Of a stretch of 59,903 nucleotides of DNA, positions 1,083-54,682 are shown piece by piece. Made by a program: the position numbers and the translations under genes. Each line of letters opens with the position of its first letter. The stretch's first letter is position 1. The notes under the pieces were generated by a model, which saw nothing but the letters and a program-made list of their open reading frames with translations, was not told the origin of the DNA and did no database searches. The stretch is from Candidatus Poseidoniales archaeon (lineage in GTDB: Archaea > Thermoplasmatota > Poseidoniia > Poseidoniales > Poseidoniaceae), in the NCBI GenBank assembly GCA_003602575.1, contig QQRY01000021.1, forward strand, positions 1 to 59,903, given 5' to 3'.

Positions 1083-2117
1083 TCATAACCCTAAGGGGCC
1101 AAGCCAACCTAGTAAATCAGGTGGTATAATACATATCAGAACTAGAAGAATAAACATCCAACCGAGGTAGTATAACGAACGGAAAAAAGATTTTGCTGCC
1201 TTTGGCATTCTTCCATTAGAATCAAATTCTTCGTTAGGATCTATGTTCCAAACTGATATGGAATACCATAGTGTTAGAACTCCAGCAATAAAAGCCCAGA
1301 GCAACGGGAGCCCTGATTCAGGCCAAAAGCAAGGGACTGAACCAAGTAAAAATAATAAGAAACAATAAATTTTAGATTGTTTTACGGTATATTCTGCACC
1401 TTTCACCTCATTCATCATTGGAACCTCGGCTCTAGCATATTCTCCAGAACGATATAGGGCAAGTGCCCAAAAATGAGGCGGAGTCCATAAAAATATGAGC
1501 GCAAATAGCATCCATGGAATAGGAGAACCTAAATCTAGTGGATTAAGATTGTTTAAGGATTCACCTGCTGCACCAGCCCATCCTATTAGAGGTGGAGTCG
1601 CTCCTGCAATTCCTCCAATCACAATATTTTGTGGCGTCCTTCTCTTTAACCACATAGAGTATATCAAAACGTAGAATGCAACAGAAAAAAATGACCAAAA
1701 AGCGGCTTTCCAATGCAGAAGAAAGAAGACTGATGAACCTAATAATGAAATTATTATTCCAAAAATTAGTGCCCCTACAGGAGAAATATACCCTTGAGGT
1801 ATTGGTCGTTTCTGAGTCCTAGTCATCAATTTATCAATATCTGAATCATACCACATATTTATCGAATTTGAACCTCCTGCAGAAAGAGTCCCTCCAATTA
1901 TTGTGATGATTATGGTGAAAAAGGTATCTGACCAAGTTCTTTCAATTTGTAATAATTCATGCCGAGACAACAGATCGTGAACCAATATGGCACACACTGC
2001 TGTAATTTGAAGTAAAACAATTACTCTTAATTTCATCAATTGGATGAATACTTTGAGCCATCCAGGATGATTTTCGGCACCAGCCTGAGAAGCGACAACA
2101 TCACCCATATAGGTCAC
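1083..2117 (-). CDS. ctaB: protoheme IX farnesyltransferase (heme O synthase)
   Basis: NMWYDSDIDKLMTRTQKRPIP, LKRRTPQNIVIGG and WTPPHFWALAL UbiA/CyoE motifs. Confidence 0.93.
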   Translation of the reverse strand: MTYMGDVVASQAGAENHPGWLKVFIQLMKLRVIVLLQITAVCAILVHDLLSRHELLQIERTWSDTFFTIIITIIGGTLSAGGSNSINMWYDSDIDKLMTRTQKRPIPQGYISPVGALIFGIIISLLGSSVFFLLHWKAAFWSFFSVAFYVLIYSMWLKRRTPQNIVIGGIAGATPPLIGWAGAAGESLNNLNPLDLGSPIPWMLFALIFLWTPPHFWALALYRSGEYARAEVPMMNEVKGAEYTVKQSKIYCFLLFLLGSVPCFWPESGLPLLWAFIAGVLTLWYSISVWNIDPNEEFDSNGRMPKAAKSFFRSLYYLGWMFILLVLICIIPPDLLGWLGPLGL

Positions 2118-3214
2118 TCCGCTTCCGAGTTTATATTTTTTGAGAGTAAAGATAACCTAATCATAAACGGGCAGACTAGAGATACTAAGAAACAAGAAAT
2201 TCCTCCTACTAAATGTAGTAATGATAACCATTCAGGGAAATCACCGGATTTAGCAAATATCAGATAACTAGCTCCAATCAATAAATTCAATAGCCAAAGT
2301 TTACCTGTATTGTGCATATATCTCAGAAAAATTTCAGATTCGGGTGATTCTTTATTTTCTTTCTGGACTTTTATGACTGAGGCGATTAGTATAATTCCGA
2401 TTACTAGAGCACCGATTCTGTGAATCATTTGTATCAAAACACCAGGCCCATCCAAAGAAGGAAGGAATGAGCCATTACATTTCGGCCATCCATTTGGAAA
2501 ACCAACTGAACATGATTGATTGTATTGACCCCCAGCAGTAGAAGAAACCCAAGCGCCTAAAATTAGTAGAAAAAGGATAGATGCTGCAATTGCATCGAAT
2601 CTATTCATGTTCGCCTCAATAAATTGTTTAGATGTTGAGAGGAATTTCCAATCTGCCCCCTCTTTAACTCGCATCAATAAATATTGCCAAATTATTGAGG
2701 CTGAAAAAATACAAGCAAGCGATAGATGTAAGGCCACAGTCCAATCTGCATTATCGAAGAAAACTGTAATCGCCCCTGCGCCGGCTTGAATAATTAGCAT
2801 TGTACCTATGAAAATAGATGAGTAATAATTTGATTTACCATAGGTTTCAATATTTTTTCTTGCTATGAAAAAGTTGGCAATAATTGGTATTGCAATAATT
2901 CCAACTAATAAACGGTGAATCCATTCTAAAAATATCTCAAAAACAGTATATCTATGAAATTCCCCCCTAGAATCAATTTCATCTGGATTCTCATCCCAGT
3001 ACTGTTCTTGTTCTTCAGGTGAAACATCAAACCCATATGTGCCAAAACACTTAGGCCAATCCGGACATGATTCACCTGCATCATTAATTCTTATCGACCC
3101 TCCGGCAACAATAATCAATAGAGCCATTGATAGAATTATCAAAGGTAATGTTGATGGGCGTCGCCACCAAGCAGTGTCCATGGGTAGACGCAAGGGCACG
3201 CCCTTTTTCAACAC
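2114..3214 (-). CDS. ctaA: heme A synthase (COX15/CtaA)
   Basis: CPDWPKC, EWIHR, second C..WPKC and QMIHR motifs; multiple TM helices; coupled to ctaB; start may be MDTAWW at 3181. Confidence 0.9.
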   Translation of the reverse strand: MLKKGVPLRLPMDTAWWRRPSTLPLIILSMALLIIVAGGSIRINDAGESCPDWPKCFGTYGFDVSPEEQEQYWDENPDEIDSRGEFHRYTVFEIFLEWIHRLLVGIIAIPIIANFFIARKNIETYGKSNYYSSIFIGTMLIIQAGAGAITVFFDNADWTVALHLSLACIFSASIIWQYLLMRVKEGADWKFLSTSKQFIEANMNRFDAIAASILFLLILGAWVSSTAGGQYNQSCSVGFPNGWPKCNGSFLPSLDGPGVLIQMIHRIGALVIGIILIASVIKVQKENKESPESEIFLRYMHNTGKLWLLNLLIGASYLIFAKSGDFPEWLSLLHLVGGISCFLVSLVCPFMIRLSLLSKNINSEAE

Positions 3215-3263: not shown

Positions 3264-4139
3264 ATGGTTCTTTTTCTAATCATAGCATTTCTCCCAAATC
3301 ATGTCACTTCGGAAGAGGTTGAAAGTCAAGACACCAGAGTATTACTCGATGTAAATGTAATGGATTCGACATGCCTAGATGAAGAATCATGCACATCATG
3401 GAGACCGAATAACTTAATTGAATATTTTGGAGCGGATTGGTGTGAACCTTGTATAGAAGTCGAAGAAGAAATCAGAAGTATTGACTCTAATCAATCGGTC
3501 ATTATTCAACACCACCCTTCCAATAGCGATCAGACATTTTTTATTCAATCTAAAATGAAATTTGAAAATCAGTACAGACTATTGTTTATCCCTTCCATTG
3601 TGGTGAATGGTGAATCATTACTGACTGGCTCCAGTCAAGCTTTAGAGATTAATCAAGTACTTGAAAATCAGAATCAAACATTTAGCGGTATTTCAGATAT
3701 AAGTTATATGAATGGCACACTATACTGGAATGCGAGCGATGGATATAATCTCAATATATGGAAGCTCGAAAATACAATGCATGAATTTGAAAATTATTCT
3801 CACCCTAATCTAGCCACTTCACTTCTTTCTTTCAAATCAGAAAATAAATCTGCTAATATTTCTGAATGGTTAGAAAATTGGGATGGTCGATTAGTATTCA
3901 TGCTTGAAGACATAGGTCCGGCTAAGTTAATTTCTGCATCAACTCTGCCTTCGGGAAACTATGATTTTAACAGTGATGATTCCAAATACTCAGAGGAATT
4001 AAGAAATGAAAAATTAAATCCGTCAACAATAGCGATAATTACAGGTTTGATTATGTTAGCAATACTCCTTCCAGCACTGATTATGTTCCAAGGTTTAAGG
4101 AAACTTGAGCCGGAAGATAAGCCCGAAGAAGAAGAATAA
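3264..4139 (+). CDS. exported thioredoxin-fold protein (WCEPC) with C-terminal membrane anchor
   Basis: Signal-like MVLFLIIAFLP; IEYFGADWCEPC, FIPSIVVNG cis-Pro motif; C-terminal TM; start refined from ORF 3039. Confidence 0.7.
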   Translation: MVLFLIIAFLPNHVTSEEVESQDTRVLLDVNVMDSTCLDEESCTSWRPNNLIEYFGADWCEPCIEVEEEIRSIDSNQSVIIQHHPSNSDQTFFIQSKMKFENQYRLLFIPSIVVNGESLLTGSSQALEINQVLENQNQTFSGISDISYMNGTLYWNASDGYNLNIWKLENTMHEFENYSHPNLATSLLSFKSENKSANISEWLENWDGRLVFMLEDIGPAKLISASTLPSGNYDFNSDDSKYSEELRNEKLNPSTIAIITGLIMLAILLPALIMFQGLRKLEPEDKPEEEE

Positions 4140-4219
4140 ACTCACTCTTGGGCAGGGGTTAGGTTCAAAAACAGTTGATATCACGCTTGCATGCGACTCA
4201 CAGTCGCAGGTGTAAATTT

Positions 4220-4474
4220 ATGGTTAAACCAGCTAGACTACATACCCGCTTCGAACGTGCTAGAATAATTGGGGCAAGAGCCTTACAAATTGGAATGGGG
4301 GCGCCTCTTTATGCTGGAGAAGATGACCTACGTGACGCATTCAAAGAAGAATTAATTTCTCTATATGGATTTGAAGAAGCATCTGTCAGGTATGTTTTGG
4401 ATCCTCTAAAGATTGCTCTTTACGAATATGAGCATGAGTTGATACCAATCGATATCGACCCTCACGAAGATTGA
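4220..4474 (+). CDS. rpoK: DNA-directed RNA polymerase subunit K (Rpo6)
   Basis: [21 protein letters not shown] signature. Confidence 0.93.
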
Positions 4475-4475
4475 T

Positions 4476-5567
4476 TCAATTATTAGAATTAAATCCATAA
4501 TATTCGGGTTTCTCCAAGTCTGGGAGATTCTCTCTTTTTACCAAAATTGTTCTTACGGCCCATAAATCTACAAAAATTCTGTAATTTAGAGTCGCATCTA
4601 GATAATCAACTCCACTCGAACCACCTGTACCCATTCTTCTACCAATCATTCGTTCTACCATCCTAGCGTGTGAATTTCTAAACAATAGCATTGATTGTTC
4701 AAGTTCAACTACTGAATCGATTAGAATTCTAGGCCATGATAGAAGAGGTAGTTCTCTGTAAGATTCAATGAATAATAATCCTGCTCTTGAGCGATTGACT
4801 ACACCTTCTGGCCTAAGGAAACTCTCAGCTTGTTCGATTGAAGCCTCCATTCTTGGACGTACTTTCGACTCTACTCCATGACCAATTTCCACTATGTGTG
4901 AAATTACAGATTCGGCATGTTCCTTCATTGCATTAATGTGACTATCTACAAATTGTGATACAACTTCAGAGTCATTTTCATCACCAATTAATGAACCATT
5001 GATTGGCGTTCTAGAAAGCCAATTCTCTAATGATTCTCGAATTGAAGGTTGATTGGAAACCATCTCAAAATTATCAAGGGTGTTCTTGGAGATTTTACCC
5101 TCTTCAGCTAGTGCCTTCATATGTTTTAAAGGATTCATTCCTCCATAATTCTCATGCTCTAATCCTAGAAGAACTTCAAGTTCCCTCATTTGCCATGACT
5201 CGAAACCAGAAGAAGTCCCTAATCGATCTCTAAATGCGAGGAATTCTTGTGGGGCCAATGTTTCCATTACTTTCCATTGATGAGACATAAGATCAAAAAT
5301 TGAAGTGACGCGCTCTAAATGATGTACCAATTTGGGCATTACCTTTTCTTCAACTTTAGTTGAGTTTAAGATCAAATTCGCTTGTTTTAATTCTGATAAA
5401 ATCAATTTAAACCATAATTCAAACGCTTGGTGAACGATAATGAAGTGTGTTTCATCATTACATGGTTGTGGAAAATACCCCTCGGGACCTTCCTGTAATC
5501 GTAATAACTCTTCCAGTCTTAGATAACCCCCGTAGGTCATTCTCTGCCCAGATGGTACTTCAGCCAT
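4476..5567 (-). CDS. kynA: tryptophan 2,3-dioxygenase
   Basis: YGGYLRLEELL, DETHFIIVHQAFELWFK, SGFESWQMR and GTGGSSGVDYL motifs; start refined to MAEVP. Confidence 0.92.
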   Translation of the reverse strand: MAEVPSGQRMTYGGYLRLEELLRLQEGPEGYFPQPCNDETHFIIVHQAFELWFKLILSELKQANLILNSTKVEEKVMPKLVHHLERVTSIFDLMSHQWKVMETLAPQEFLAFRDRLGTSSGFESWQMRELEVLLGLEHENYGGMNPLKHMKALAEEGKISKNTLDNFEMVSNQPSIRESLENWLSRTPINGSLIGDENDSEVVSQFVDSHINAMKEHAESVISHIVEIGHGVESKVRPRMEASIEQAESFLRPEGVVNRSRAGLLFIESYRELPLLSWPRILIDSVVELEQSMLLFRNSHARMVERMIGRRMGTGGSSGVDYLDATLNYRIFVDLWAVRTILVKRENLPDLEKPEYYGFNSNN

Positions 5568-5678
5568 GACATGGCATCGGCTCCTAAGACTTGAACTCTT
5601 CACTAGAATTAGATTTTTGAATAGGAAAATGAACAACTAAATTTATTCAAAAATCAATAATAAATACATAATGCTCAT

Positions 5679-6815
5679 ATGGCTAATACGAAACCCCTCG
5701 ACATGGGCGTAGATACTGACTTGTTGGCAAGTTGGCTTGCAGACTACGACAAAGACAAACTCACTATCGGAGTTGTTGCTTCTCACTCTTCTTTACAAAT
5801 CCTACATGGTGCCAAGAAAGAAGGCTTCAGAACTTTGGGGATTGCAGTTGGTGAAAACCGTAGGAGATTCTACAAAGCATTCCCTGGAGCTGAACCAGAT
5901 GAATGGCTAATGCTAGAAAATTATAGAGAAATGTTAGATTATGCTGAGTGGTTTAGAGAAAGAAATGTGATTATAATTCCCCACGGTTCTTTAGTAGAAT
6001 ATTTGGGTGCTACAAATTACAAAAGTCTCCAAGTACCTACATTTGGTAATAGAGGTATTTTACATTGGGAAAGTAGTAGGCATAGACAAAGGTTATGGTT
6101 GGAGGATGGTGGCTGTGACATGCCTAAAGTTTTGGAAGACCCTAGAGATATAGATGGGCCTGTAATTGTAAAGTATGCCGGTGCTAAAGGAGGAAGAGGG
6201 TACTTTATAGCAAGAGATTATCGAGATTTTCGAAGAAATGTAGACATTGAAGAGGAATTTACTATTCAAGAATATGTACTTGGATGTAGATATTATCTAC
6301 ATTTCTTCTTTGACCCAACCGCAGATGATGGTTTCCAAGTACAAGGACGAAAATCAAATGCTGGCAAAAACCTAGGTCGCTTAGAGTTACTTTCCATGGA
6401 TCGAAGAGATGAATCTAATGTTGACGAATTTTACAAATTGGGTTCGCTTAGGGACTTGAGAGAAATGAATCTGGAACCTTCCTTTGTGGTAACTGGTAAT
6501 CAGCCAGTGGTAATCCGTGAATCTTTGTTACCAAGGGCTTTTGAAATGGCCGAAGGAACTATTGCAGCCTCCTTTGAACTCGAAGAAGGAAGTAGGGGGA
6601 TGATTGGTCCATTCTGCTTAGAAACAATAGTGACCGATAAACTAGAATTCAAAGTATTTGAGATAAGTGCTAGAATAGTAGCTGGTTCAAATCCATTTGT
6701 TGGAGGTTCACCTTACTCCGACATCAACGAAGAGAGAATGTCTACTGGAAGAAGAATCGCTCGTTCTATCAAGAAAGCCAGTGAAAATGACAGATTACTA
6801 GATATTTTATCTTAA
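5679..6815 (+). CDS. purP: FAICAR synthetase (formate-dependent, ATP-grasp)
   Basis: ASHSSLQILHGAKKEGF, IPHGS, GAKGGRGYF, GPFCLET and FEISARIVAG motifs. Confidence 0.9.
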   Translation: MANTKPLDMGVDTDLLASWLADYDKDKLTIGVVASHSSLQILHGAKKEGFRTLGIAVGENRRRFYKAFPGAEPDEWLMLENYREMLDYAEWFRERNVIIIPHGSLVEYLGATNYKSLQVPTFGNRGILHWESSRHRQRLWLEDGGCDMPKVLEDPRDIDGPVIVKYAGAKGGRGYFIARDYRDFRRNVDIEEEFTIQEYVLGCRYYLHFFFDPTADDGFQVQGRKSNAGKNLGRLELLSMDRRDESNVDEFYKLGSLRDLREMNLEPSFVVTGNQPVVIRESLLPRAFEMAEGTIAASFELEEGSRGMIGPFCLETIVTDKLEFKVFEISARIVAGSNPFVGGSPYSDINEERMSTGRRIARSIKKASENDRLLDILS

Positions 6816-6829
6816 TCGAATTTACTATT

Positions 6830-8701
6830 TCAATCATCTTCTTCCAATTCAACTTGAACCTCTGGTTCTACTTCTTCCGGATCTTTTGTGATAGAAACTG
6901 AATCATTAGAATCTACATTTTGCTGAATCTCTGTAGCTTGTTCAATGGATAAACCCATTGCATCTGCAACTTCTTCAATGGAAACTTCGTCATTACCGGA
7001 TTTCTCAAATTTATTTGTAATCGCTCTCATTTGCTCTCTTAATTCTTCTAATTTAGCATTCCTTTCTTCTGTAGTAGGAACTGAAAATTGTGCTACAAGT
7101 TTGATTGGATCTCCATGAGATAGTTCTCCATTAAATTCCATTAAGTCACCAATATTGTTGATTATTACTTGGAATTTAGTCGGATCACGTGTTCTTCGCT
7201 TTTTGTGCTTCTTGTAATGGTGAACATAAACTTGGTATTCACCAGGTTGGGCTGTTTCATCATCCCAAACTACATTTTCGACTGGTTTCTTAGTCTCAGG
7301 CCTTACATTAGCATCTACGTCAAGTTCACCGCCGCAAGCAGAAATCTTGTTCCCACCATGAATTCTTTCACCAGAAGGGCAAACTACGTGTAAATCCAAA
7401 TCATTGTAATTATTCCACATCAATGAGACTTGGACATCTCCAGATCTAGCACCCTCTCTATCCAACCTTTCTTGTAATTCCGACATTGCATTCTCAGCAG
7501 CTTGTCTAGATTCCATCTCTTCTTGTTGCTTGGCTAATTCAACTTCTGCCATTCTTTGTTCTTCAATCGCAGCCATCTCATTCTGTCTTTGCTGTTCTTC
7601 TTCAGCACGTTCATTCTCTAATCTTTGAGATTCTTCTGCTTCTTGGCGCATTTTCAATTCCATTTGATTCTTAGAAAATTCTTCCTGCTCACTACGCTCC
7701 GGGACATCAAATTGACATACTAATTTGATTGGATCGCCATGAGTCAATTCACCATGGTATTCTCTAAAGTCTCCAACATTATTGACAATAATTTGGAATT
7801 TAGTTGGATCACGTGTTTTTCGCTTTCTATGCTTCTTGTAATGGTGAACATATACTTGATATGAACCCGGAGATGCTGATGTGCCCTGCCATACTACATT
7901 CTCAACTGGCTTTTTAGTCTCTGCTCTAACATTTGCATCAACATCTAACTCTCCTCCACATCCAGAAACCTTATTTCCGCCGTGGATTCTTTCACCAGAT
8001 GGACAGACGACGTGAAGATCTAGATCATTGTAATTCTCCCACATAAGGGAAATCTGTACATCTCCACTCATTGCACCTTCTCTTGCTAATCTCTCTTGTA
8101 ATTCAGCCATAGCAGCCTCTGCAGCAGCTCTTGATTCCATCTCTTCTTGCATTCTCGCTGCTTCTACTTCGGCCAACCTCTGTTCTTCGGCTGCTGACAA
8201 TTCAAGTTGACGAAGTTCTTCTCTCTCTGCCTGTAAGCGCGCTTCTTCTTCTTCACGCTCCCTTGAAAGTCTTTCATCTTCTTCTTTTCTTCTACGCTCG
8301 GAATCTTCTGCTTCTAGACGCTGACGTTCTTCTTCCTCACGCCTACGAGCTTCTTGTTCTTCGGCAAGTCTACGTTGCTCTTCACGACGAAGTCTCTCTC
8401 TTTGAGCCTCTTCTTCTAGCAAACGTACTTGTTCAGAAGCGATTCTTTCAGCTTCTTGTACTGCAAGTCGAGAATCTATAATCTGTTGGCGACGCTTTCG
8501 GTCTTCAACCAAGGCCAATTTGCGGTCAATTTCTTGTTTTGTTTGGCCAAAACTAGGAGCGCCACTACCTTGCCTCAATCCTTCAGCGGACATTCCGGGA
8601 CGCATGTTCAACTTAGCATCTTTTCTGACTAGAATGTACCACATACCTAGCAAAAAACCGCCACCCATGAGAGCCATCACACCCAAAGAAGCCGTATCCA
8701 T
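6830..8701 (-). CDS. membrane-anchored coiled-coil protein with two YfaP/DUF2135-like domains
   Basis: N-terminal TM, E/R-rich coiled coil, two copies of DVQxSLMWxNYNDLDLHVVCPSGERI...GGELDVDAN...VENVVW. Confidence 0.75.
   Translation of the reverse strand: MDTASLGVMALMGGGFLLGMWYILVRKDAKLNMRPGMSAEGLRQGSGAPSFGQTKQEIDRKLALVEDRKRRQQIIDSRLAVQEAERIASEQVRLLEEEAQRERLRREEQRRLAEEQEARRREEEERQRLEAEDSERRRKEEDERLSREREEEEARLQAEREELRQLELSAAEEQRLAEVEAARMQEEMESRAAAEAAMAELQERLAREGAMSGDVQISLMWENYNDLDLHVVCPSGERIHGGNKVSGCGGELDVDANVRAETKKPVENVVWQGTSASPGSYQVYVHHYKKHRKRKTRDPTKFQIIVNNVGDFREYHGELTHGDPIKLVCQFDVPERSEQEEFSKNQMELKMRQEAEESQRLENERAEEEQQRQNEMAAIEEQRMAEVELAKQQEEMESRQAAENAMSELQERLDREGARSGDVQVSLMWNNYNDLDLHVVCPSGERIHGGNKISACGGELDVDANVRPETKKPVENVVWDDETAQPGEYQVYVHHYKKHKKRRTRDPTKFQVIINNIGDLMEFNGELSHGDPIKLVAQFSVPTTEERNAKLEELREQMRAITNKFEKSGNDEVSIEEVADAMGLSIEQATEIQQNVDSNDSVSITKDPEEVEPEVQVELEEDD
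7080..8190 (-). repeat. intragenic tandem duplication, about 624-bp (208-aa) offset
   Basis: ATTCTTTCACCAGA at 7362 and 7986; near-identical protein domains with synonymous divergence. Confidence 0.85.
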
Positions 8702-8859
8702 GTCGACCCCATATCGAACATGTCTATTGAAGCATCGGTCAAAAGTATATGATTTGACTATTGGAAGAGTATTTTTTTGTTGTTTTTTGTGAAATTTATC
8801 AATAAATCTTCCTTTTTAAAAAAGCAAAGCATTGAGAGGGGGGAACTGTTGGCACTATC

Positions 8860-9657
8860 ATGGGCAAAGCCGACTTGTTGTCTAAGATTCTACCTGGTGG
8901 ACGAGGTGTTTGGATACCTATCGACCATGGAGTTACGGACTTCCCTGTTGAAGGATTAACAGATGTTGAATCTACCATAAAGTCATTGATCTCTGCTGGA
9001 GTAGATGCTATTATTGCGCACAAAGGCCTTGTTGGACATTATCATAAATTATGTGAAAATACAAATACGAATATGATAGTTCACCTCTCTGCATCGACAA
9101 GACATGGAGGTATAGAATCCTCAAACAAAGTATTGGTGGGTAGTGTTGATGAAGTGCGCAAAAGAGGCGGCATTGGAGTTTCATGTCAAGTCAATTTAGG
9201 AAGTGAGAAGGAGCCTGAAATGATGGAGAGAATGGGTGAAGTCAGTCGTCAAGCATTACTTGAAGGAATTCCTATGTTTGGTATGGTATACGCCAGAGGA
9301 CCTAATCTGAACATCATGGAAGATGATGAAACAAATGGATATTCGCATGCAGCAAGATTGGCATTTGAATTAGGTTGTGATGCTGCAAAGACAGTTTGGA
9401 CCGGAGACAAAGAGAGCTTCACTCAAATCACAAATTCGGCCCCTATACCGCTTCTTGTAGCAGGAGGCCCATCCACTGGTGATAGTCGAGCTATTTTGAC
9501 AATGGTGCGAGATGCAATGGACTCGGGGGCCTCTGGAGTCTGTATGGGGAGGCAAGTTTTTGGCCATCCTCAAGTCGAATCTATTGCCAGAGCAATCGTA
9601 ATGTTAGTGCACCAAGATGCATCTGTGGATGAAGCAATAATGAAATGCTCTTTGTGA
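8860..9657 (+). CDS. aroA': 2-amino-3,7-dideoxy-D-threo-hept-6-ulosonate synthase (DhnA-type aldolase, AroA')
   Basis: IPIDHG, MVYARGP, ARLAFELGCDAAKT, VAGG and GRQVF motifs; directly upstream of DHQ synthase II. Confidence 0.85.
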   Translation: MGKADLLSKILPGGRGVWIPIDHGVTDFPVEGLTDVESTIKSLISAGVDAIIAHKGLVGHYHKLCENTNTNMIVHLSASTRHGGIESSNKVLVGSVDEVRKRGGIGVSCQVNLGSEKEPEMMERMGEVSRQALLEGIPMFGMVYARGPNLNIMEDDETNGYSHAARLAFELGCDAAKTVWTGDKESFTQITNSAPIPLLVAGGPSTGDSRAILTMVRDAMDSGASGVCMGRQVFGHPQVESIARAIVMLVHQDASVDEAIMKCSL

Positions 9658-49219: not shown

Positions 49220-50161
49220 TCATTCTTCTTCCTTTTTGGAGTACATTTCTACAGCCATAGAAGGCGGTAAAATAACACTCCACCACTTAGGTCTCTTCAC
49301 GTCTCCTTCTTCAGTTACAAAGGAGCGGATTAGCATAGAGATTAGATCTATTATCACTACGACTACAAAGACTACAATTAGTAAGGCAAATGCCTTATTG
49401 TAATCAAATGGTGGATTGATGTAATTATCGATATACATACCGATTCCTCCAGCACCTACAAGACCTAAAACCGCTCCATGTCTTACATTATACTCGAACA
49501 TGAATAATAATTGACTAAGAAGGTGATTACTAGACTCTGGAATTACTACATGGAATAATTGTTCAGAATGTGTCAAACCCATTGCCAAACCAGACTCTAA
49601 CGGCGCGTTATGAACTCCTTCCATGGCCTCATACTGTAGTTTTCCTAAGTATCCAATAGTGTACAAAGTCATGGCTAAAATACCAGGTAATGGCCCAAAA
49701 CCGAGGGCGATTGCAAATAGTAAAGCCCAAATTATACTGGGTAGACTTCGTAGTCCAGCAAGTAAAACTCTTGCAGGAATTGCAATTGGCAGTGGAGCCA
49801 TATTATTTGCTGCAAAAGAGGCAATTGGAATTGAAAAGAAAAATCCTATCAAAGTTGCAACGAATGCCATTTTTATAGTAATTACCATTCCTGTCCAAGC
49901 CTTAGAACAGAATAATTCGATATTTTCATTACATACATCTCCATTGGGTTTGTGTAATGAACCATCTGCCCAAACCTCTGCCTCTAAAACCGACCAATCT
50001 GGAGGCAAGAGGTCTTCACTGAAGAATATCTTTAACTTTTCAGGTGCACCTTCTATTTGACCCCAATCATCGACTAAATCATCTAGAGATAACCAAGCTA
50101 GAAGTATTAAGAAAATACCAACAAAAAATAATTTCTTATTGATTGGAATCACCTTCCTCAA
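49220..50161 (-). CDS. PhnE-family ABC transporter permease
   Basis: RSLPSIIWAL, GKLQYEAME, FEYNVRHGAVLGLVGAGGIG. Confidence 0.88.
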   Translation of the reverse strand: MRKVIPINKKLFFVGIFLILLAWLSLDDLVDDWGQIEGAPEKLKIFFSEDLLPPDWSVLEAEVWADGSLHKPNGDVCNENIELFCSKAWTGMVITIKMAFVATLIGFFFSIPIASFAANNMAPLPIAIPARVLLAGLRSLPSIIWALLFAIALGFGPLPGILAMTLYTIGYLGKLQYEAMEGVHNAPLESGLAMGLTHSEQLFHVVIPESSNHLLSQLLFMFEYNVRHGAVLGLVGAGGIGMYIDNYINPPFDYNKAFALLIVVFVVVVIIDLISMLIRSFVTEEGDVKRPKWWSVILPPSMAVEMYSKKEEE

Positions 50162-50813
50162 TCAAATTATCATCAATGATTCGCCAAATTCTATCAGCGA
50201 GCTCAATCGCTCTTTCTTCATGGTGTTCGATTAAGATTAAGGTCGCTCCAATTTCGTCAACGATCTCTTTAGTAGCGGCAATTATAGAATTTACATTCTC
50301 TTTATCGAGTTCTCCTAAGAATTCATCTGCAAGGATGAGTTTAGGCCTTTGGACAAGTGTTCTTGCAATAGCAACACGTCTCTGTTGACCTCCAGAAAGA
50401 ATTCTAACCGGTTCATCTGCAATATCTAGAATTTTTAATGCCCTCATGGCATTATCCATATCTTGTTTGAGTTTCTTATCTAGTGGAAACCAGAATGGAA
50501 ACCACCTAGATCTTCTTGTTCTTGCCCCTAATGCGACATTACTTCGTACTGTAGAGTGCCTTACTAAACCAAGTCTCTGGGGTATGTAACCAATTCCACC
50601 TCTTTTGGGATAGTTATGATATATCTCCCCAGATAGAGGTCGAATTAAACCTGCTATAGTCCTCATCAAAGTAGTCTTTCCAATTCCAGATGAACCCAAA
50701 ATTGCAATCGTATCTCCCGGATAAATGGTTTTGTTAATATCTGATACCAATGGTTTGTCATAGCCAACAGATAGACCTCTAAGAGTTACACTCTCAGGGT
50801 CTATCTGCTGCAT
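50136..50813 (-). CDS. PhnC-family ABC transporter ATPase
   Basis: GSSGIGKTT, LSGGQQRRVAIAR, ILADE; start refined to MQQID after a GGTGGTGAG RBS. Confidence 0.88.
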   Translation of the reverse strand: MQQIDPESVTLRGLSVGYDKPLVSDINKTIYPGDTIAILGSSGIGKTTLMRTIAGLIRPLSGEIYHNYPKRGGIGYIPQRLGLVRHSTVRSNVALGARTRRSRWFPFWFPLDKKLKQDMDNAMRALKILDIADEPVRILSGGQQRRVAIARTLVQRPKLILADEFLGELDKENVNSIIAATKEIVDEIGATLILIEHHEERAIELADRIWRIIDDNLIEEGDSNQ

Positions 50814-50901
50814 CTCACCACCACCTCGAGAGGGGGATTTTTCAACTACCAAGTAACCATCACCATGTGCCCGTAGAATTATTCTATTTAGAGCAAGTAG
50901 G

Positions 50902-53109
50902 TCATTCTTGTTCAGAAGTTTCAGCATCTGTGATGCCGTACTTATCTGATGAATGGTAATATTCTGAAAGACCTGGCACAGATGCTAGAAGATCAGAATA
51001 ACTTGCCAAATGATTTTGGCTATTTCCTGCTTTCAATCCATAACCCTTCGAAGTAACAGAAGATAGAATCTCTCCACCACATTGGTTCATAGGAATATCA
51101 GCAACTTGGTGAGTCACTGTATTGTAACATCCTGTGTAATTTTGACCTCCCATAGGATAATTGTCAACCCACATTTCATCGTTCCAACTCAACATTGCAT
51201 TCAAAATTGCATTACGTGTGTGGATATCTAACTTTTCAGGGTTATACATTACAGGGTGGCTTGGAGATTGTCCAAATGATGGTAGTTGGACATATTGGTC
51301 CATTGGAAGACACCAAGCTTCATTCTCAGAAGCATTATCATCGCCACAGTATTTTTCAACTGTACTGAAATCGTCTCCCTTAGCAAAAGCAACATCTCCA
51401 TATCCTTCACTCAAACACTCAATAGCACCACTATATCCCGAATATAGGGCTCCAGAATCAGGAATTGATGCTGGATTTCCATTACTTGCCGAGCCATCGA
51501 AATGGTTGTCAATAGTCGTTCTAAGTGAGTTTACATCTGTATTATCTCCTAGAGGAGTAACATATCCGTTCTTAATTAGATACCCCATTGGCATCAACAT
51601 TCCAGCAGATTTTAGCCATCCGGTGTGACAAGAGGTCTTTCCTGCCATTAATGCGAACGGATCTGTTGAGTCATCTCCATCCAAGTGAGCATTAGCGATA
51701 TCTGAACCGTTTAGAACCCATGCTGAAGCATTGTAGTGTGTCGCTCCTTCTGCGGTTGTGGTTTCAACAGCTAATACAGAAAGTCCGTATTGTTTCCATC
51801 CAATCCATGCTGGTCCACCTTCCATGAATCCAATATCTGCATTTCCAAATCTCAATGCTTGGATAATCATTCCTTCGGATGAAACATCATACAAGTTAAC
51901 ATTCACTCCAAGGTCTGATGCAAGTCTATCAGCCATTCCTTGAGCATCAGCATTTGCACTTGCGTCATCTGCTAAATAATATGCAACATTAATCGTAGAT
52001 TTTACTGCAGCAGTTTCTGAACCATTTGTGAAAGCATTTCCATACTTACTGGAAATACCTGGGATGTTTTGAAGCGCTGCTCCATATGTTCCCAAATGTG
52101 TTTCAGCATCGGTAACAATCATAGCATCAGTACCTAGAACATTGTTTAAAATTTCTAGGCCATTGGTATCATCTTTCATTGCTACAAGTGCATCTTGAAT
52201 CAAGGTCACTTTGTCTGCTGCGAGGACATCACTGTTATACATGACAGAGTGACTAGGAGATGATCCAAATTTCGGTAAAGCAACATATTGACTCATATCC
52301 AAACACCATGCTTGATTCAAGGTTGCATCCTCATTATCACAATATGAAGCAACTGTCGAATCCTTAGCAAACGCTACATCTCCATATCCAGTACTCAAAC
52401 ATTCAACGGCTCCACTATATCCTGAGTACAATGCGCCACTTTCTGGAATAGATGCTGGATTTCCAGCACCTGTACTTCCATCAAAGTAGTAATTAATTGT
52501 AGTTCGTAAAGTTTCAGTATCAGACATGTCTCCTTGAACATTGACATATCCGTTACCAATCATGTAACCCATAGGCATCAACATTCCTGCTGATTTTAGC
52601 CATCCAGTGTGACAAGATGTTTTTCCAGCAAGTAGAGTGAAAGGATCGGTTGAATCATCATTGTCTAGATGAGCTGTTGCCATTTCTGAATCTGCTTTGA
52701 CCCAAGCATGTGCATCATAATAGGCACGCCCATCGCTTTTTGTGTCAGCAGCCATAACGTCTAGATCATATGCATTCCAGCCAACCCAAGCAGGTCCACC
52801 ATCAATATTCATTGCAATATCTGCGTTTCCAAATCTAAGTGCTTCCATAGCGATTCCTGAACTTCCAACATCATATAATGAAACATCCATATCTAACTTA
52901 TCACAGAGATAATCTGCAATCTGTTGAGGATTTGATAGATCTGTATCTGTCAAATCTTCTTTTATTTCATATGCTATTTTTAATTCATCTCCGCTACAAT
53001 TATCTGTAGAAGATGTAGAATCATCATCACTACCAATACAACCTGCCATAGCAGTAGTCACCATTAGTAGTATCATTAGGCTCGATTTCGCAATTTTTGT
53101 TTCCAACAT
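50902..53109 (-). CDS. bilobed transferrin-like (PhnD-fold) substrate-binding lipoprotein
   Basis: Lipobox AMAGC; two lobes about 328 aa apart, each with GKTSCHTGWLKSAG, YSGYSGAxECL..GYGDVAFAK and SPSH; ATG 53109 follows a GAGTGA RBS. Confidence 0.85.
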   Translation of the reverse strand: MLETKIAKSSLMILLMVTTAMAGCIGSDDDSTSSTDNCSGDELKIAYEIKEDLTDTDLSNPQQIADYLCDKLDMDVSLYDVGSSGIAMEALRFGNADIAMNIDGGPAWVGWNAYDLDVMAADTKSDGRAYYDAHAWVKADSEMATAHLDNDDSTDPFTLLAGKTSCHTGWLKSAGMLMPMGYMIGNGYVNVQGDMSDTETLRTTINYYFDGSTGAGNPASIPESGALYSGYSGAVECLSTGYGDVAFAKDSTVASYCDNEDATLNQAWCLDMSQYVALPKFGSSPSHSVMYNSDVLAADKVTLIQDALVAMKDDTNGLEILNNVLGTDAMIVTDAETHLGTYGAALQNIPGISSKYGNAFTNGSETAAVKSTINVAYYLADDASANADAQGMADRLASDLGVNVNLYDVSSEGMIIQALRFGNADIGFMEGGPAWIGWKQYGLSVLAVETTTAEGATHYNASAWVLNGSDIANAHLDGDDSTDPFALMAGKTSCHTGWLKSAGMLMPMGYLIKNGYVTPLGDNTDVNSLRTTIDNHFDGSASNGNPASIPDSGALYSGYSGAIECLSEGYGDVAFAKGDDFSTVEKYCGDDNASENEAWCLPMDQYVQLPSFGQSPSHPVMYNPEKLDIHTRNAILNAMLSWNDEMWVDNYPMGGQNYTGCYNTVTHQVADIPMNQCGGEILSSVTSKGYGLKAGNSQNHLASYSDLLASVPGLSEYYHSSDKYGITDAETSEQE

Positions 53110-53120
53110 TTTTATCACTC

Positions 53121-53138
53121 TTTTAGGGAGGCCGAAAA
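53121..53138. promoter_or_regulatory. palindromic operator A, TTTTAGG-N4-CCGAAAA (DtxR/SirR-like)
   Basis: Inverted repeat with one mismatch, at the expected transcription start of the transferrin-like gene. Confidence 0.6.
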
Positions 53139-53155
53139 GTAACTCATATATATTA

Positions 53156-53171
53156 TTTAGGTTTCCCTAAA
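53156..53171. promoter_or_regulatory. palindromic operator B, TTTAGG-TTTC-CCTAAA (DtxR/SirR-like)
   Basis: Perfect 6-4-6 inverted repeat directly upstream of a TATA-like TAATATATATG on the minus strand. Confidence 0.7.
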
Positions 53172-53190: not shown

Positions 53191-54111
53191 TCACTCTACT
53201 TTGACTTGACTTATGCCTTTTACAATCTGATTTAGATACCGAACTTCTATTTCTAAATTACAAGCCGAACTACAAATATCATGACCGTTTTCATAAACAG
53301 AAATTATCTCATCATGATTCCAAACGCTTTCATTATCTGATGAGATAAAACAGTGCGCTTCCTTTGTCAAATTTTCATTACTTATTGCTGAAATATCGAT
53401 ATCTCCAATAGAGGAAATTATGAAAGAAATAAACCTTGAATCATCATCGGAATTATAGTAACTTAGAAATTGAATCTTGTAAAATATGTTACTATCATTA
53501 ACGATGTAAGTAATTTCCTTTGGGATTACTCGATGAACTGAAATATCATAATCATACCATTCTAACCTAGAATCTGAGGTTTCGGTAGGTTCTCCTTCAG
53601 GAATTGAATCCACGTTTTGAAACTCTTCCTCAGTAGTATATCCCAAAACATTCTCCCCAAGTATGATGTCTGTCTTTGAAAAACTAATACTATAATTACT
53701 ATCATTGGTCTGTTGCATATCTGAGAAACTTAAGAGAATAAAATCATCTGAATCTGAATTAACTTCAATGGTAAAGCTATTTCCGTCTGAATTAAGTTTG
53801 GTTTGAATTAGCCCATTATGGGAAATGCTAGAGGTTAGCCCACTCTTTGTACAATCATAGCGATTATTGTCACCTATGAGAGTCATTGTTAATTTAGACC
53901 AGTCAAGATTATCTTCACCAGAAGAAAAGGAAAATTGCAATAATGGATCATTGGATTGGTTTGAAACATTACTATTGTAATCCTCTACCAGAATTTCATT
54001 CTCTGTAGTTAATTCTGCTGAATAAGATGTAACAAGAAAATACCATCCCACTGCCCCGATTACTAAAACAATTAGAACTCCGGCCAAAAGTCGCTTTAAC
54101 CAATTTGACAT
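53191..54111 (-). CDS. membrane-anchored protein with HmuY-like heme-binding domain
   Basis: N-terminal TM; EWYDYDISVHRVIPKEITYIV...YKIQFLSYY...SRFISF resembles the HmuY C-terminal motif; start refined to MSNWL. Confidence 0.65.
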   Translation of the reverse strand: MSNWLKRLLAGVLIVLVIGAVGWYFLVTSYSAELTTENEILVEDYNSNVSNQSNDPLLQFSFSSGEDNLDWSKLTMTLIGDNNRYDCTKSGLTSSISHNGLIQTKLNSDGNSFTIEVNSDSDDFILLSFSDMQQTNDSNYSISFSKTDIILGENVLGYTTEEEFQNVDSIPEGEPTETSDSRLEWYDYDISVHRVIPKEITYIVNDSNIFYKIQFLSYYNSDDDSRFISFIISSIGDIDISAISNENLTKEAHCFISSDNESVWNHDEIISVYENGHDICSSACNLEIEVRYLNQIVKGISQVKVE

Positions 54112-54140
54112 GGTGTTCGCTCCCTTCAATCAAGTATAAA

Positions 54141-54156
54141 CTTTGGTTGCCCTAAA
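54141..54156. promoter_or_regulatory. palindromic operator C (minus strand TTTAGG-GCAA-CCAAAG) abutting a TTTATA box
   Basis: Same motif and position relative to the TATA element as operator B; TATA about 24 nt upstream of ATG 54111. Confidence 0.6.
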
Positions 54157-54160
54157 CTAT

Positions 54161-54682
54161 TCAATTAGTTTCAATACTGCGTGTGTTTACAAAGTAACGA
54201 ACATATATCATACCTAAGAAACCAATGAAAAGGATTGTAATTGAACCCATAGCATACATATCAGCGCCATTCCAAGAATCTATATCAAATAATGTTCCAT
54301 CACCTTTTGTTGAAACATACCAAACCAGATATGCTGAAATTGTTGACATTATCCCAACCATTGCCATAATTATGTACTTTACATGTTTTGGCAATGATTT
54401 TCCTGTTGCATAATAATCGAACATCTTCTTTCCAAAGAATTTGTTCGAGAGAGACCATCTAAACAATTTTTCATTTGATAAGGAAAACAAAAAGGCAGCC
54501 GGAACTGCCCAAGATACTGTTGGCCAACCTGGAACGAATATTCCAACAAGTGCAAAAAAAGTAAATAGAGAACCGAGCGATTGGTAAATGATACTCTTTA
54601 CCCTGTTACTAGAAATACAATACTTTTCGACTACTGAATCAATAGTCAAAAGTCGTTCGTCCATGAGCGTCGGTTTAACCAT
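54161..54682 (-). CDS. YbaN/DUF454 family membrane protein
   Basis: LVGIFVPGWPT..AAFLF..S..KLFRWSLSNKFFG..G.SLP..VK pattern. Confidence 0.75.
   Translation of the reverse strand: MVKPTLMDERLLTIDSVVEKYCISSNRVKSIIYQSLGSLFTFFALVGIFVPGWPTVSWAVPAAFLFSLSNEKLFRWSLSNKFFGKKMFDYYATGKSLPKHVKYIIMAMVGIMSTISAYLVWYVSTKGDGTLFDIDSWNGADMYAMGSITILFIGFLGMIYVRYFVNTRSIETN

Follow-up and report, generated by a model that had tools for sequence, protein, structure and literature searches.

What is a HmuY-like protein doing on the surface of an archaeal cell that has no outer membrane? The question is raised by a gene on the minus strand of contig QQRY01000021.1 (assembly GCA_003602575.1), in a stretch of 59,903 nucleotides (the window in what follows) from the chromosome of a Marine Group IIa (Poseidoniaceae) archaeon. 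Poseidoniia (Marine Groups II and III, MGII and MGIII) are among the most abundant planktonic archaea, and their iron acquisition is essentially undescribed; iron limits much of the surface ocean. The first-pass annotation of the gene proposed an archaeal surface domain split by a horizontally acquired HmuY module, of a heme-binding kind best known from Bacteroidota. The reading that we prefer, with a probability of roughly 0.55, is an iron-regulated, membrane-anchored surface capture protein serving importers of ionic iron.

The longest open reading frame (ORF) at the locus, from the ORF list and its translation, spans 53191..54129 on the minus strand and starts with TTG (312 aa). Homologs are almost all 306 aa long, and the ATG at 54111 is therefore the likely start; the 306-residue numbering is used throughout. 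An ORF artefact is ruled out by conservation across 29-90% identity. All sequence motifs noticed in the first pass are found in the translation. A basic K6/R7 precedes a hydrophobic stretch at 8-27, the DPLLQFSFSSGEDNLDWSKLTMTL segment runs up to C87, the middle part ends in WYDYD(185-189)..H193...PK..YIV...YKIQFLSYY, and the C-terminal tail reads C254...WNHDEIISVYENGHDIC280SSAC284NLEIEV. The middle segment of about 130 residues, first placed at 53410-53800, corresponds to residues ~98-238. The parts of the gene are as follows.

53191..54111, minus strand: gene of the HmuY-like surface protein, 306 aa (ATG at 54111, TGA ending at 53191)
54025..54108, minus strand: N-terminal helix, residues 2-29, hydrophobic core 8-27 (DSSP on the model, and sequence)
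53839..54021, minus strand: N-terminal half of the scaffold, residues ~31-91, four strands, ends at Cys87 (hhalign, scaffold profile, model strands)
53398..53820, minus strand: inserted HmuY-fold module, residues ~98-238 (Pfam below threshold, hhalign, Foldseek, conservation)
53533..53535, minus strand: codon of the invariant His193, in the turn of hairpin 186-189/194-197 (alignment; hairpin from the model)
53194..53367, minus strand: C-terminal half of the scaffold, residues ~249-306, with Cys254, Cys280 and Cys284 (scaffold profile, phmmer, model strands)

An AlphaFold2 model of the protein (mean predicted local distance difference test, pLDDT, 88.2; predicted template modelling score 0.80) places strands at 39-44, 56-64, 74-80 and 83-88 before the insert and five strand segments at 249-305. 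The helix at 2-29 would act as an uncleaved signal-anchor in the cytoplasmic membrane, with its N-terminus inside and the remainder of the protein outside, and it aligns with the hydrophobic helix of relatives that bear the archaeal pilin signature Pilin_N. Seven N-x-S/T sequons and four conserved cysteines are consistent with a surface location.

Are the two flanks one domain? An exhaustive search returned two kinds of distant match, one to the scaffold (its N-terminal part, its C-terminal part or both) and one, bacterial, to the insert. Seven relatives (P0109, P0107, P0112, P0110, P0135, P0166 and P0180) carry the scaffold as an uninterrupted domain of ~100 residues, and in pairwise phmmer comparisons query residues ~10-90 and ~251-305 align to contiguous segments of these proteins; in P0109 the two halves match residues 30-109 and 112-166. 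The shared pattern is DD.L.R..W....DDL.W.F..I.L..GD..Y.C, then a few residues, then C.I.Q.G.DD..WE.DE...LSENG..IC...C...I.V.Y.G. A hidden Markov model (HMM) built from relatives with the uninterrupted domain and searched over all window ORFs matched this protein as the sole ORF (E 7.6e-27; runner-up ORF 0.048), and the match came in two pieces, HMM positions 3-74 on residues 34-104 and positions 58-117 on residues 246-305. In hhalign the N-terminal half matched an alignment of uninterrupted scaffolds (A3) with 99.0% probability (E 2.8e-18, residues 31-89).

The same order of four plus four strands is seen in models of the query and of the uninterrupted P0107, whose C-terminal half holds four strands, although the P0107 model is the weaker one (pLDDT 69.1; domain blocks mostly 72-91, two falling to 52-53). 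Its top matches in the PDB are archaellins (9eq7 with E 1.0e-3 and TM-scores of 0.40/0.43, then 7txi, 7ofq, 8rh5, 5o4u and 5z1l), with FlaF, FlaG and Ig domains ranking lower; these are weak matches, none better than 1e-3, with TM-scores of 0.27-0.43 for the archaellins. In the model, an N-terminal hydrophobic helix is followed by an Ig-like beta-sandwich, which is the layout of the archaellin/pilin superfamily. Judged by sequence and predicted fold, the proposal that the flanks form one split pilin-like/Ig-like domain is supported.

Membership of the protein among processed type IV pilins is not supported. Pilin_N (PF07790) is found in five scaffold relatives (P0077, P0109, P0149, P0154 and P0180; 1.9e-8 to 3.2e-7), but has no match in the protein at E<=1 and is absent from the 13 Pfam families matched by 24 family members, which makes prepilin processing and filament assembly doubtful. 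Compared with archaeal type IV pilin-like proteins and archaellins such as that of the Halobacterium salinarum archaellum (9eq7), the protein thus shares the hydrophobic helix and the Ig-like sandwich, and differs in lacking Pilin_N, in its weak structural match, in its four-cysteine scaffold pattern and in having a loop that accepts inserts.

In the uninterrupted P0107 the first two cysteines stand 8 residues apart, and it is between these two that the module is inserted. In the target the stretch from Cys87 to Cys254 comprises 166 residues and occupies the loop between sandwich strands 4 and 5, and a Cys87-Cys254 disulfide probably closes the base of the insert. With that putative disulfide, the architecture is a clean natural example of a domain inserted into the disulfide-closed loop of another.

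Other cargo was seen at the same site. In P0149 (258 aa; a cluster of 4 sequences on contigs of up to 15 kb), whose scaffold bears Pilin_N, residues 118-189 form an entire ubiquitin domain (Pfam 1.2e-31) within the equivalent Cys-Cys loop; here a pilin-type protein of an archaeon displays a eukaryote-like ubiquitin. P0077 (677 aa) and P0154 (617 aa) have inserts of ~450-490 residues, which in P0154 include repeated units resembling carbohydrate-binding modules (CBM; AMPK1_CBM 1.9e-8), while P0109 and P0180 carry long C-terminal extensions instead. One member of the protein's own family, P0165 (123 aa), has nothing of the stretch between the first two cysteines, and represents either a form that is naturally without the insert or an artefact of assembly. 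If the Cys-Cys loop between strands 4 and 5 is a natural display site, it would point to modular building of surface receptors in these archaea.

The insert itself is a HmuY-fold module, divergent and shortened, whose homology to PF14064 was established by profile comparison and by the predicted fold. Matches to the insert came from bacterial proteins of ~190-600 aa with one, two or three copies of the region equivalent to query residues ~110-240. Eighteen of the 22 distant phmmer matches that were scanned pass Pfam HmuY (PF14064), and the remaining four comprise Pilin_N, Ig and other proteins. An alignment of 11 single-domain bacterial examples (A2; the eight that were checked all carry PF14064) has the consensus WYDYDxSTHxLTPxDxVYV...KLxFxxYYDD. 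The alignment of 24 archaeal members (A1) matches A2 in hhalign with 99.9% probability (E 6.1e-32, residues 102-236 against columns 10-156 of 158), and the A2 profile finds the archaeal family at 1e-31 to 1e-26.

Solved HmuY structures were reached by two routes only, the bacterial profile and fold comparison. The A2 profile matched PDB chains at 7.7e-11 to 3.6e-3 (8b6a 7.7e-11, 3h8t 1.2e-9, also 4gbs, 6eu8, 3u22, 8b61 and 6r2h). In Foldseek, the nine top matches to the full model were chains from seven HmuY-family PDB entries, all with probability 1.00 (E 8.3e-6 to 2.9e-4, TM-scores normalised to the target 0.43-0.59; 8b6a 8.3e-6, 3h8t 1.8e-4). The next was 8b61 (E 4.3e-3, probability 1.00), with which the HmuY-family matches span TM-scores of 0.40-0.59 on the same normalisation; the remaining matches listed had probabilities of at most 0.16. 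The structure prediction thus bears out the HmuY-like module of the first-pass annotation. Direct searches gave less, and this counts against the assignment. Pfam HmuY matched at 15.7 bits against a gathering cut-off of 27 (E 0.017; residues 133-234 of the 312-aa ORF against profile positions 75-153 of 157), and 23 of the 24 family members match it at E<1, the best at 0.0018 and none reaching the cut-off. No NCBIfam family matches the protein, a PDB sequence search gave a chance match only (phospholipase A2, E 0.88), and the A1 profile had no PDB matches at E<=10. The proposed profile check therefore divides: Pfam itself falls short, and the hhalign match to proteins that pass Pfam stands.

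The family is not small. Relatives at E<=1e-3 numbered 49 in a word-indexed protein search and 173 in an exhaustive search of representatives, 13 of the latter at E<=1e-30. Species-representative genomes hold 73 loci, nearly all in metagenome-assembled genomes (MAGs) of Poseidoniaceae, Thalassarchaeaceae or MGIII; the closest, in a Candidatus Poseidoniaceae MAG, has 90% protein identity and identical gene order, and the housekeeping genes of the window agree with a Marine Group IIa origin. In A1 the four cysteines and W185-Y186-x-Y188...H193 are invariant, as are, within the module, SKTD 145-148, WYDYD 185-189, Y218-Y219, D223 and R226. His193 is in addition near-invariant in both of the clades that are distinguished below by gene context. 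ESM Atlas feature matches were to the family's own archaeal clusters and to one cluster with PF14064 in 10% of members.

What does the module serve? In the window the gene is part of a minus-strand array in the order 303-aa protein without a family, DUF454, HmuY-like gene, substrate-binding protein (SBP), ATPase and permease, the last three being parts of an ATP-binding cassette (ABC) importer.

54161..54682, minus strand: DUF454 membrane protein gene, 49 nt upstream of the HmuY-like gene (Pfam 2.4e-16; synteny)
50902..53118, minus strand: bilobal transferrin-homolog SBP, 738 aa, MAGC lipobox-like signal (Pfam, PDB matches)
50136..50927, minus strand: ABC ATPase (NCBIfam PhnC-like, 2.7e-37)
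49220..50161, minus strand: PhnE-type permease (NCBIfam PhnE, 4.2e-65, 219.7 bits against a cut-off of 216.7)

The ATPase gene overlaps both the permease gene and the SBP gene. The SBP is a genuine transferrin homolog by sequence. It matches Pfam Transferrin at 8.9e-31 (107.7 bits against a cut-off of 20.3) as well as Phosphonate-bd at 4.3e-26, and in the PDB it aligns over both lobes, best with lactoferrins (7.6e-23), ovotransferrin and serotransferrin. The aligned positions are D106/Y134/Y234/H290 and T171/K175/A177/G178 in the N-lobe and E/Y462/Y562/H621 and T499/K503 in the C-lobe. We take these to be the Asp/Tyr/Tyr/His iron ligands and the Thr-x3-Arg-x-Ala-Gly anion site of transferrins. 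They are invariant in 11 orthologs, the C-lobe Glu excepted, and their counterparts recur in all of 10 single-lobe orthologs; iron binding is predicted. Transferrin and lactoferrin thus resemble the SBP in profile, bilobal form and the ligand and anion-site positions, whereas the SBP is a prokaryotic lipoprotein for an ABC importer, with Lys for the anion-site Arg and Glu for the C-lobe Asp. A bilobal transferrin-type SBP with PhnC/PhnE-type ABC parts may bear on the origin of transferrins.

Across the 73 loci the neighbours fall into the following classes.

28 loci: SBP-ATPase-permease set adjoining (4 in the order of the window, 24 with the HmuY-like gene last, after the permease)
25 loci: gene with two fasciclin domains and a cupredoxin domain directly upstream
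1 locus (L028): FTR1 iron permease directly upstream (Pfam 4.3e-33)
5 loci: DUF454 only
3 loci: none of these neighbours, despite long flanks
11 loci: upstream flank below 500 nt, too short

Ten loci have, directly upstream of the SBP or FTR1 gene and in divergent orientation, a gene for a DtxR-family repressor with an FeoA domain, and in seven a flavodoxin gene stands beside this repressor gene (e.g. L019:732-2254, with the repressor gene at 1592-2254). The FTR1-linked module of L028 is almost identical to the ABC-linked module of L030. FTR1/EfeU-type permeases have extracytoplasmic iron-binding partners, P19/FtrA and EfeO/EfeM. The HmuY-like protein resembles these partners as a small extracytoplasmic beta-rich protein encoded beside an iron permease, and as in EfeO/FtrB systems one of its clades adjoins the gene of a cupredoxin protein; the likeness is a functional analogy, in which metal binding by the HmuY-like module is hypothetical.

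The promoters carry a palindrome, TTAGG-N4-CCTAA, in up to three copies in divergent intergenic regions and beside TATA-like runs. In 754,149 bases of loci all 46 exact copies lie within 260 nt upstream of the starts of SBP (32), DtxR (10), FTR1 (2) or DUF454 (2) genes; one box near the start of the repressor's own gene suggests autoregulation. The half-sites are those of the bacterial DtxR consensus, given as TTAGGTTAG(G/C)CTAACCTAA in PMC1382209. Boxes flank the HmuY-like gene on both sides.

54142..54155: box TTAGGGCAACCAAA (minus strand), one mismatch, followed by TTTATA; 44 nt upstream of the ATG (pattern search)
53123..53170: two boxes between the HmuY-like and SBP genes (pattern search)

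The first is found at -44 or -43 in all five close loci (L001-L005), within surrounding sequence that is variable, and is missing from the more distant L006, L007 and L037, where the gene directly follows DUF454. Of the pair, that at 53157-53170 is an exact box, TTAGGGAAACCTAA, followed by ATAATATATAT, and is the sole exact match in the 59.9-kb window; that at 53123-53136, in the same intergenic region, has one mismatch. L001-L005 have a box at the equivalent position between the HmuY-like and SBP genes.

The transferrin-like ABC or FTR1 importers, the DtxR-family and flavodoxin neighbours and the promoter boxes together point to an iron-starvation context for the gene. In the mechanism that we propose, the boxes, which overlap the TATA regions of the gene's own promoter and of the next gene's, would define an iron-starvation regulon, and a DtxR-family repressor would bind them when iron is sufficient. 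When iron runs short, an iron-bearing species would be captured by the module on the outside of the membrane, at the surface of the cell, and the iron would be passed to the adjacent lipid-anchored transferrin-homolog SBP and its ABC importer, or to FTR1 in the one MGIII relative. What the data show is the domain architecture, the fold, the conserved linkage of the genes, the boxes and the transferrin-type ligand positions of the SBP; control by iron, transfer of iron between the proteins and the identity of the ligand are inferences.

Several observations weigh against this proposal, in addition to the Pfam and NCBIfam results. Five boxes with at most one mismatch occur in the window where 1.57 are expected, and 3 of 100 shuffles reached five, so that only their clustering is telling (three of the five are in the two intergenic regions flanking the HmuY-like gene). 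The box spacer is 4 nt as against 9 nt in the bacterial consensus of PMC1382209, no DtxR gene lies within the window, and it is gene adjacency that putatively assigns the boxes to DtxR-family proteins. The fasciclin-cupredoxin clade has no adjoining iron transporter, and no box, even with one mismatch, was found in the 14 of its loci that were checked (locus positions 4001-9000). Nor do the loci with DUF454 only or with none of the listed neighbours speak for iron, and a PhnC/PhnE-like ATPase and permease would, taken by themselves, be compatible with a phosphonate or other anion as substrate.

A wider claim can be made only tentatively, at somewhat short of even odds: that Poseidoniia possess a previously undescribed DtxR-controlled iron-capture system in which a transferrin-type SBP or FTR1 works with a HmuY-on-pilin receptor lacking the heme residues, and in which the scaffold loop is a display site. 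If the iron-capture reading holds, it would give a globally abundant lineage a testable iron-uptake pathway and would be a case of the HmuY fold at work in a cell that has neither outer membrane nor TonB.

Does the module instead bind heme, as a hemophore-like receptor for heme or porphyrin that works in the manner of Porphyromonas gingivalis HmuY or Bacteroides fragilis BfrB without an outer membrane? The fold invites the idea, as the top structural match is BfrB itself (8b6a) and the heme-bound 3h8t is among the matches, and the iron-starvation context would suit it. The portion of PMC12106395 consulted describes a family tolerant in its ligands: in P. gingivalis HmuY the ligands of the heme iron are His134 and His166, in other members they are His/Met or Met/Met pairs, BfrB (HmuY-Bf-2) binds heme or protoporphyrin IX without iron coordination but needs Y89 and Y165, as mutagenesis showed, and BfrC binds neither. 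Residues were mapped through the chained alignments A1, A2 and 8b6a/3h8t, which are weak local alignments and not coordinates, with His134 placed in 3h8t by the offset that sets His166 at "FSHG". The ~36 residues between chain positions 94 and 131 of 3h8t, which hold His134, are reduced to ~8-10 residues in the target and in the bacterial subgroup, so that in this alignment the finger of the first axial ligand is missing. BfrB Y89 (the tyrosine of "NRY"/"HRY") aligns to the invariant T147 of SKTD, and Y165 (that of "PTY") to V195; neither porphyrin-contacting tyrosine is thus kept. The residue aligned with His166 is I190, in a weak block of 3.9 bits, and the invariant His193, which is also conserved in the bacterial subgroup consensus WYDYDxSTH, follows three residues later at the tip of the same hairpin. 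Met132 was tried as a second axial ligand and rejected, as it is near-invariant in A1 and unconserved in the wider set.

By these alignments the module does not keep canonical heme ligation, and it probably binds another ligand or binds in another way. Heme or porphyrin may still be the ligand, as in the family members that have been studied, but a non-heme Fe(III) species or an iron chelate is at least as likely, in view of the transporters that partner the module and of the canonical heme residues that it has lost; the linked importers are of types that move ionic iron, not heme. The setting differs as well. The protein has a transmembrane helix and no lipobox, in place of an outer-membrane lipoprotein beside the TonB-dependent receptor HmuR, and a Pfam scan of 45 window ORFs found no TonB receptor, heme ABC importer or heme oxygenase; the first pass had likewise supposed that a TonB receptor was missing. 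At 1083..3214 and 4476..5636 (both minus strand) the window does contain genes of the UbiA family (heme O synthase-like) and COX15/CtaA and a tryptophan 2,3-dioxygenase gene; these indicate that the organism uses heme proteins, and count in favour of a heme receptor. On balance, we consider the hemophore-like receptor of the first-pass annotation unlikely, about one chance in a handful.

The second large group of loci suggests another role, in which the protein is a docking or organising subunit that orients extracellular metalloproteins, the SBP in one clade and the fasciclin-cupredoxin protein in the other. In 25 loci (L032-L035, L044, L045, L048, L049, L051, L053-L061, L063-L068 and L073) the HmuY-like gene lies 8-82 nt 3' of a gene encoding two fasciclin domains and a copper domain of the plastocyanin/azurin type, which in L044 also has EF-hand and LDL-receptor-A domains. 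The family thus adjoins the genes of two unrelated secreted metalloproteins, and pilin-type scaffolds are assembly and interaction modules. The invariant residues, however, lie in the turns of the HmuY hairpins and in WYDYD..H, a motif common to soluble bacterial multi-domain HmuY proteins without known partners of this kind, and we regard a docking role as improbable.

Just as improbable as docking, in our view, is an adhesin or surface-structure protein of pilin-like type that is linked to iron genes incidentally. Homologs of the scaffold include proteins with archaeal type IV pilin signal peptides, its fold is archaellin-like, relatives bear unrelated inserts (ubiquitin, CBM-like repeats), and three loci have no metal-related neighbour. 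The linkage recurs in MGIIa, MGIIb and MGIII, comes in two gene orders and involves transporters of two types; this, like the gene's own conserved box, is difficult to reconcile with an incidental association, and the Pilin_N signature needed for prepilin processing is missing. An accessory of a phosphonate or other anion importer, finally, is very improbable: it would account for the PhnE equivalog score, the PhnC-like ATPase and the matches of the SBP to Phosphonate-bd and TIGR01098, but the SBP is far below the PhnD cut-offs (34.5 against 261; 65.3 against 112) and well above that of Transferrin, it keeps the transferrin metal-ligand positions, and iron is indicated by the neighbouring DtxR, flavodoxin and FTR1 genes together with the DtxR-like boxes. 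The PhnE score is barely above its cut-off, which means that automatic annotation probably names this iron-context system a phosphonate transporter. Until tested, neither heme nor phosphonate uptake should be concluded from the labels "HmuY family protein" and "phosphonate ABC transporter" at this locus.

Where did the module come from? A quick maximum-likelihood tree of 44 archaeal modules and 38 bacterial HmuY domains (148 columns, SH-aLRT support, unrooted; thirty loci were dropped as truncated) places all 44 archaeal modules on one side of a branch with support 100. They comprise a clade of 18 rows with fasciclin-cupredoxin context (support 93) and a group of 26 rows with ABC/FTR1 context (support 89). 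The simplest reading of the sequences is a single old insertion before the split of MGII and MGIII, from a proteobacterial-type lineage or shared with one; the tree, being unrooted, does not show the direction of transfer. A recent transfer from Bacteroidota was rejected, as the nearest relatives are proteobacterial and myxococcal and the archaeal modules form one clade, and a Bacteroidota donor is accordingly not indicated. Two loci of archaeal type, L021 and L059, are on contigs assigned to MAGs of Pseudobdellovibrionaceae and Salipiger bermudensis, respectively; in the tree the two modules fall among those of Poseidoniales, and the contigs are probably misbinned.

The nearest sequence relatives of the module are marine bacterial "HmuY family proteins" with one to three tandem domains, in MAGs of Myxococcota, Alphaproteobacteria and "Deltaproteobacteria" and in the named Pseudobacteriovorax antillogorgiicola (P0084) and Cognaticolwellia (P0203); matches are at 1e-11 to 1e-5 in phmmer and ~1e-31 in reciprocal profile comparison. 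They share WYDYDxS(T/V)HxxxP...Y(V/I)V...YK(L/I)QFxSYY(N/D) with the target. The motifs that had been taken as marks of Bacteroidota-type heme binders thus instead mark this proteobacterial and myxococcal subgroup of PF14064, and the corresponding segments of Bacteroidota proteins read differently. Unlike the target, the marine bacterial proteins are free-standing or tandem, have bacterial signal sequences, pass Pfam HmuY and have no pilin-type scaffold.

The Bacteroidota proteins are more distant. BfrB/HmuY-Bf-2 (8b6a), P. gingivalis HmuY (3h8t/6ewm), BVU_2192 (3u22), BF2707 (4gbs), Tfo (6eu8), 6r2h and BfrC (8b61) have in common with the module an all-beta fold, homology through an intermediate profile and a link to iron acquisition. 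They are described as lipoproteins of diderms that are encoded beside HmuR (bioRxiv 10.1101/2023.03.17.533168, in the part consulted). The archaeal module is shorter (~140 residues against 176-200 in the matched chains), is inserted in another domain that has a transmembrane helix as its anchor, shows gene linkage to an ABC or FTR1 importer, and by sequence appears to lack the first ligand finger and both conserved tyrosines.

Archaeal homologs of HmuY have been noted before. In the legend of Supplementary Fig. S1 of Bielecki et al. 2018 (PMC6200708), a group G11 of Euryarchaeota stands beside the proteobacterial groups G9 and G10, and two close homologs of the protein are named "HmuY family protein" by NCBI. 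What appears to be new, judged by the literature searched, is the architecture with its insert, the setting among transferrin, FTR1 and DtxR genes and the absence of the canonical heme residues. Apart from that legend, the portions of this literature that were covered held nothing linking HmuY, transferrin-like proteins or DtxR to these archaea, and the search gave nothing relevant on Poseidoniales pilins, on heme auxotrophy, or on phytotransferrin or phosphonate in archaea.

Some features of the loci touch the system from its edges. The DUF454 gene travels with the HmuY-like gene in several lineages; it is co-located in L001-L007 and L037, lies at most ~1.9 kb downstream in L013, L018, L019, L025 and L029 and 101 nt downstream in L062, and has its own exact upstream box in two loci (L004:7197 and L005:6137). 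The MGIII CG-Bathy1 MAG has, at L028:6436-8900, a compact arrangement of a DtxR-family repressor gene, three boxes, the FTR1 permease gene and the HmuY-like gene. In L006, from an uncultured euryarchaeote MAG, the DUF454/HmuY-like pair adjoins a gene (L006:3389-7459, minus strand) for a 1357-aa protein with a single-subunit RNA polymerase domain of the phage/mitochondrial type (PF00940, 5.8e-40).

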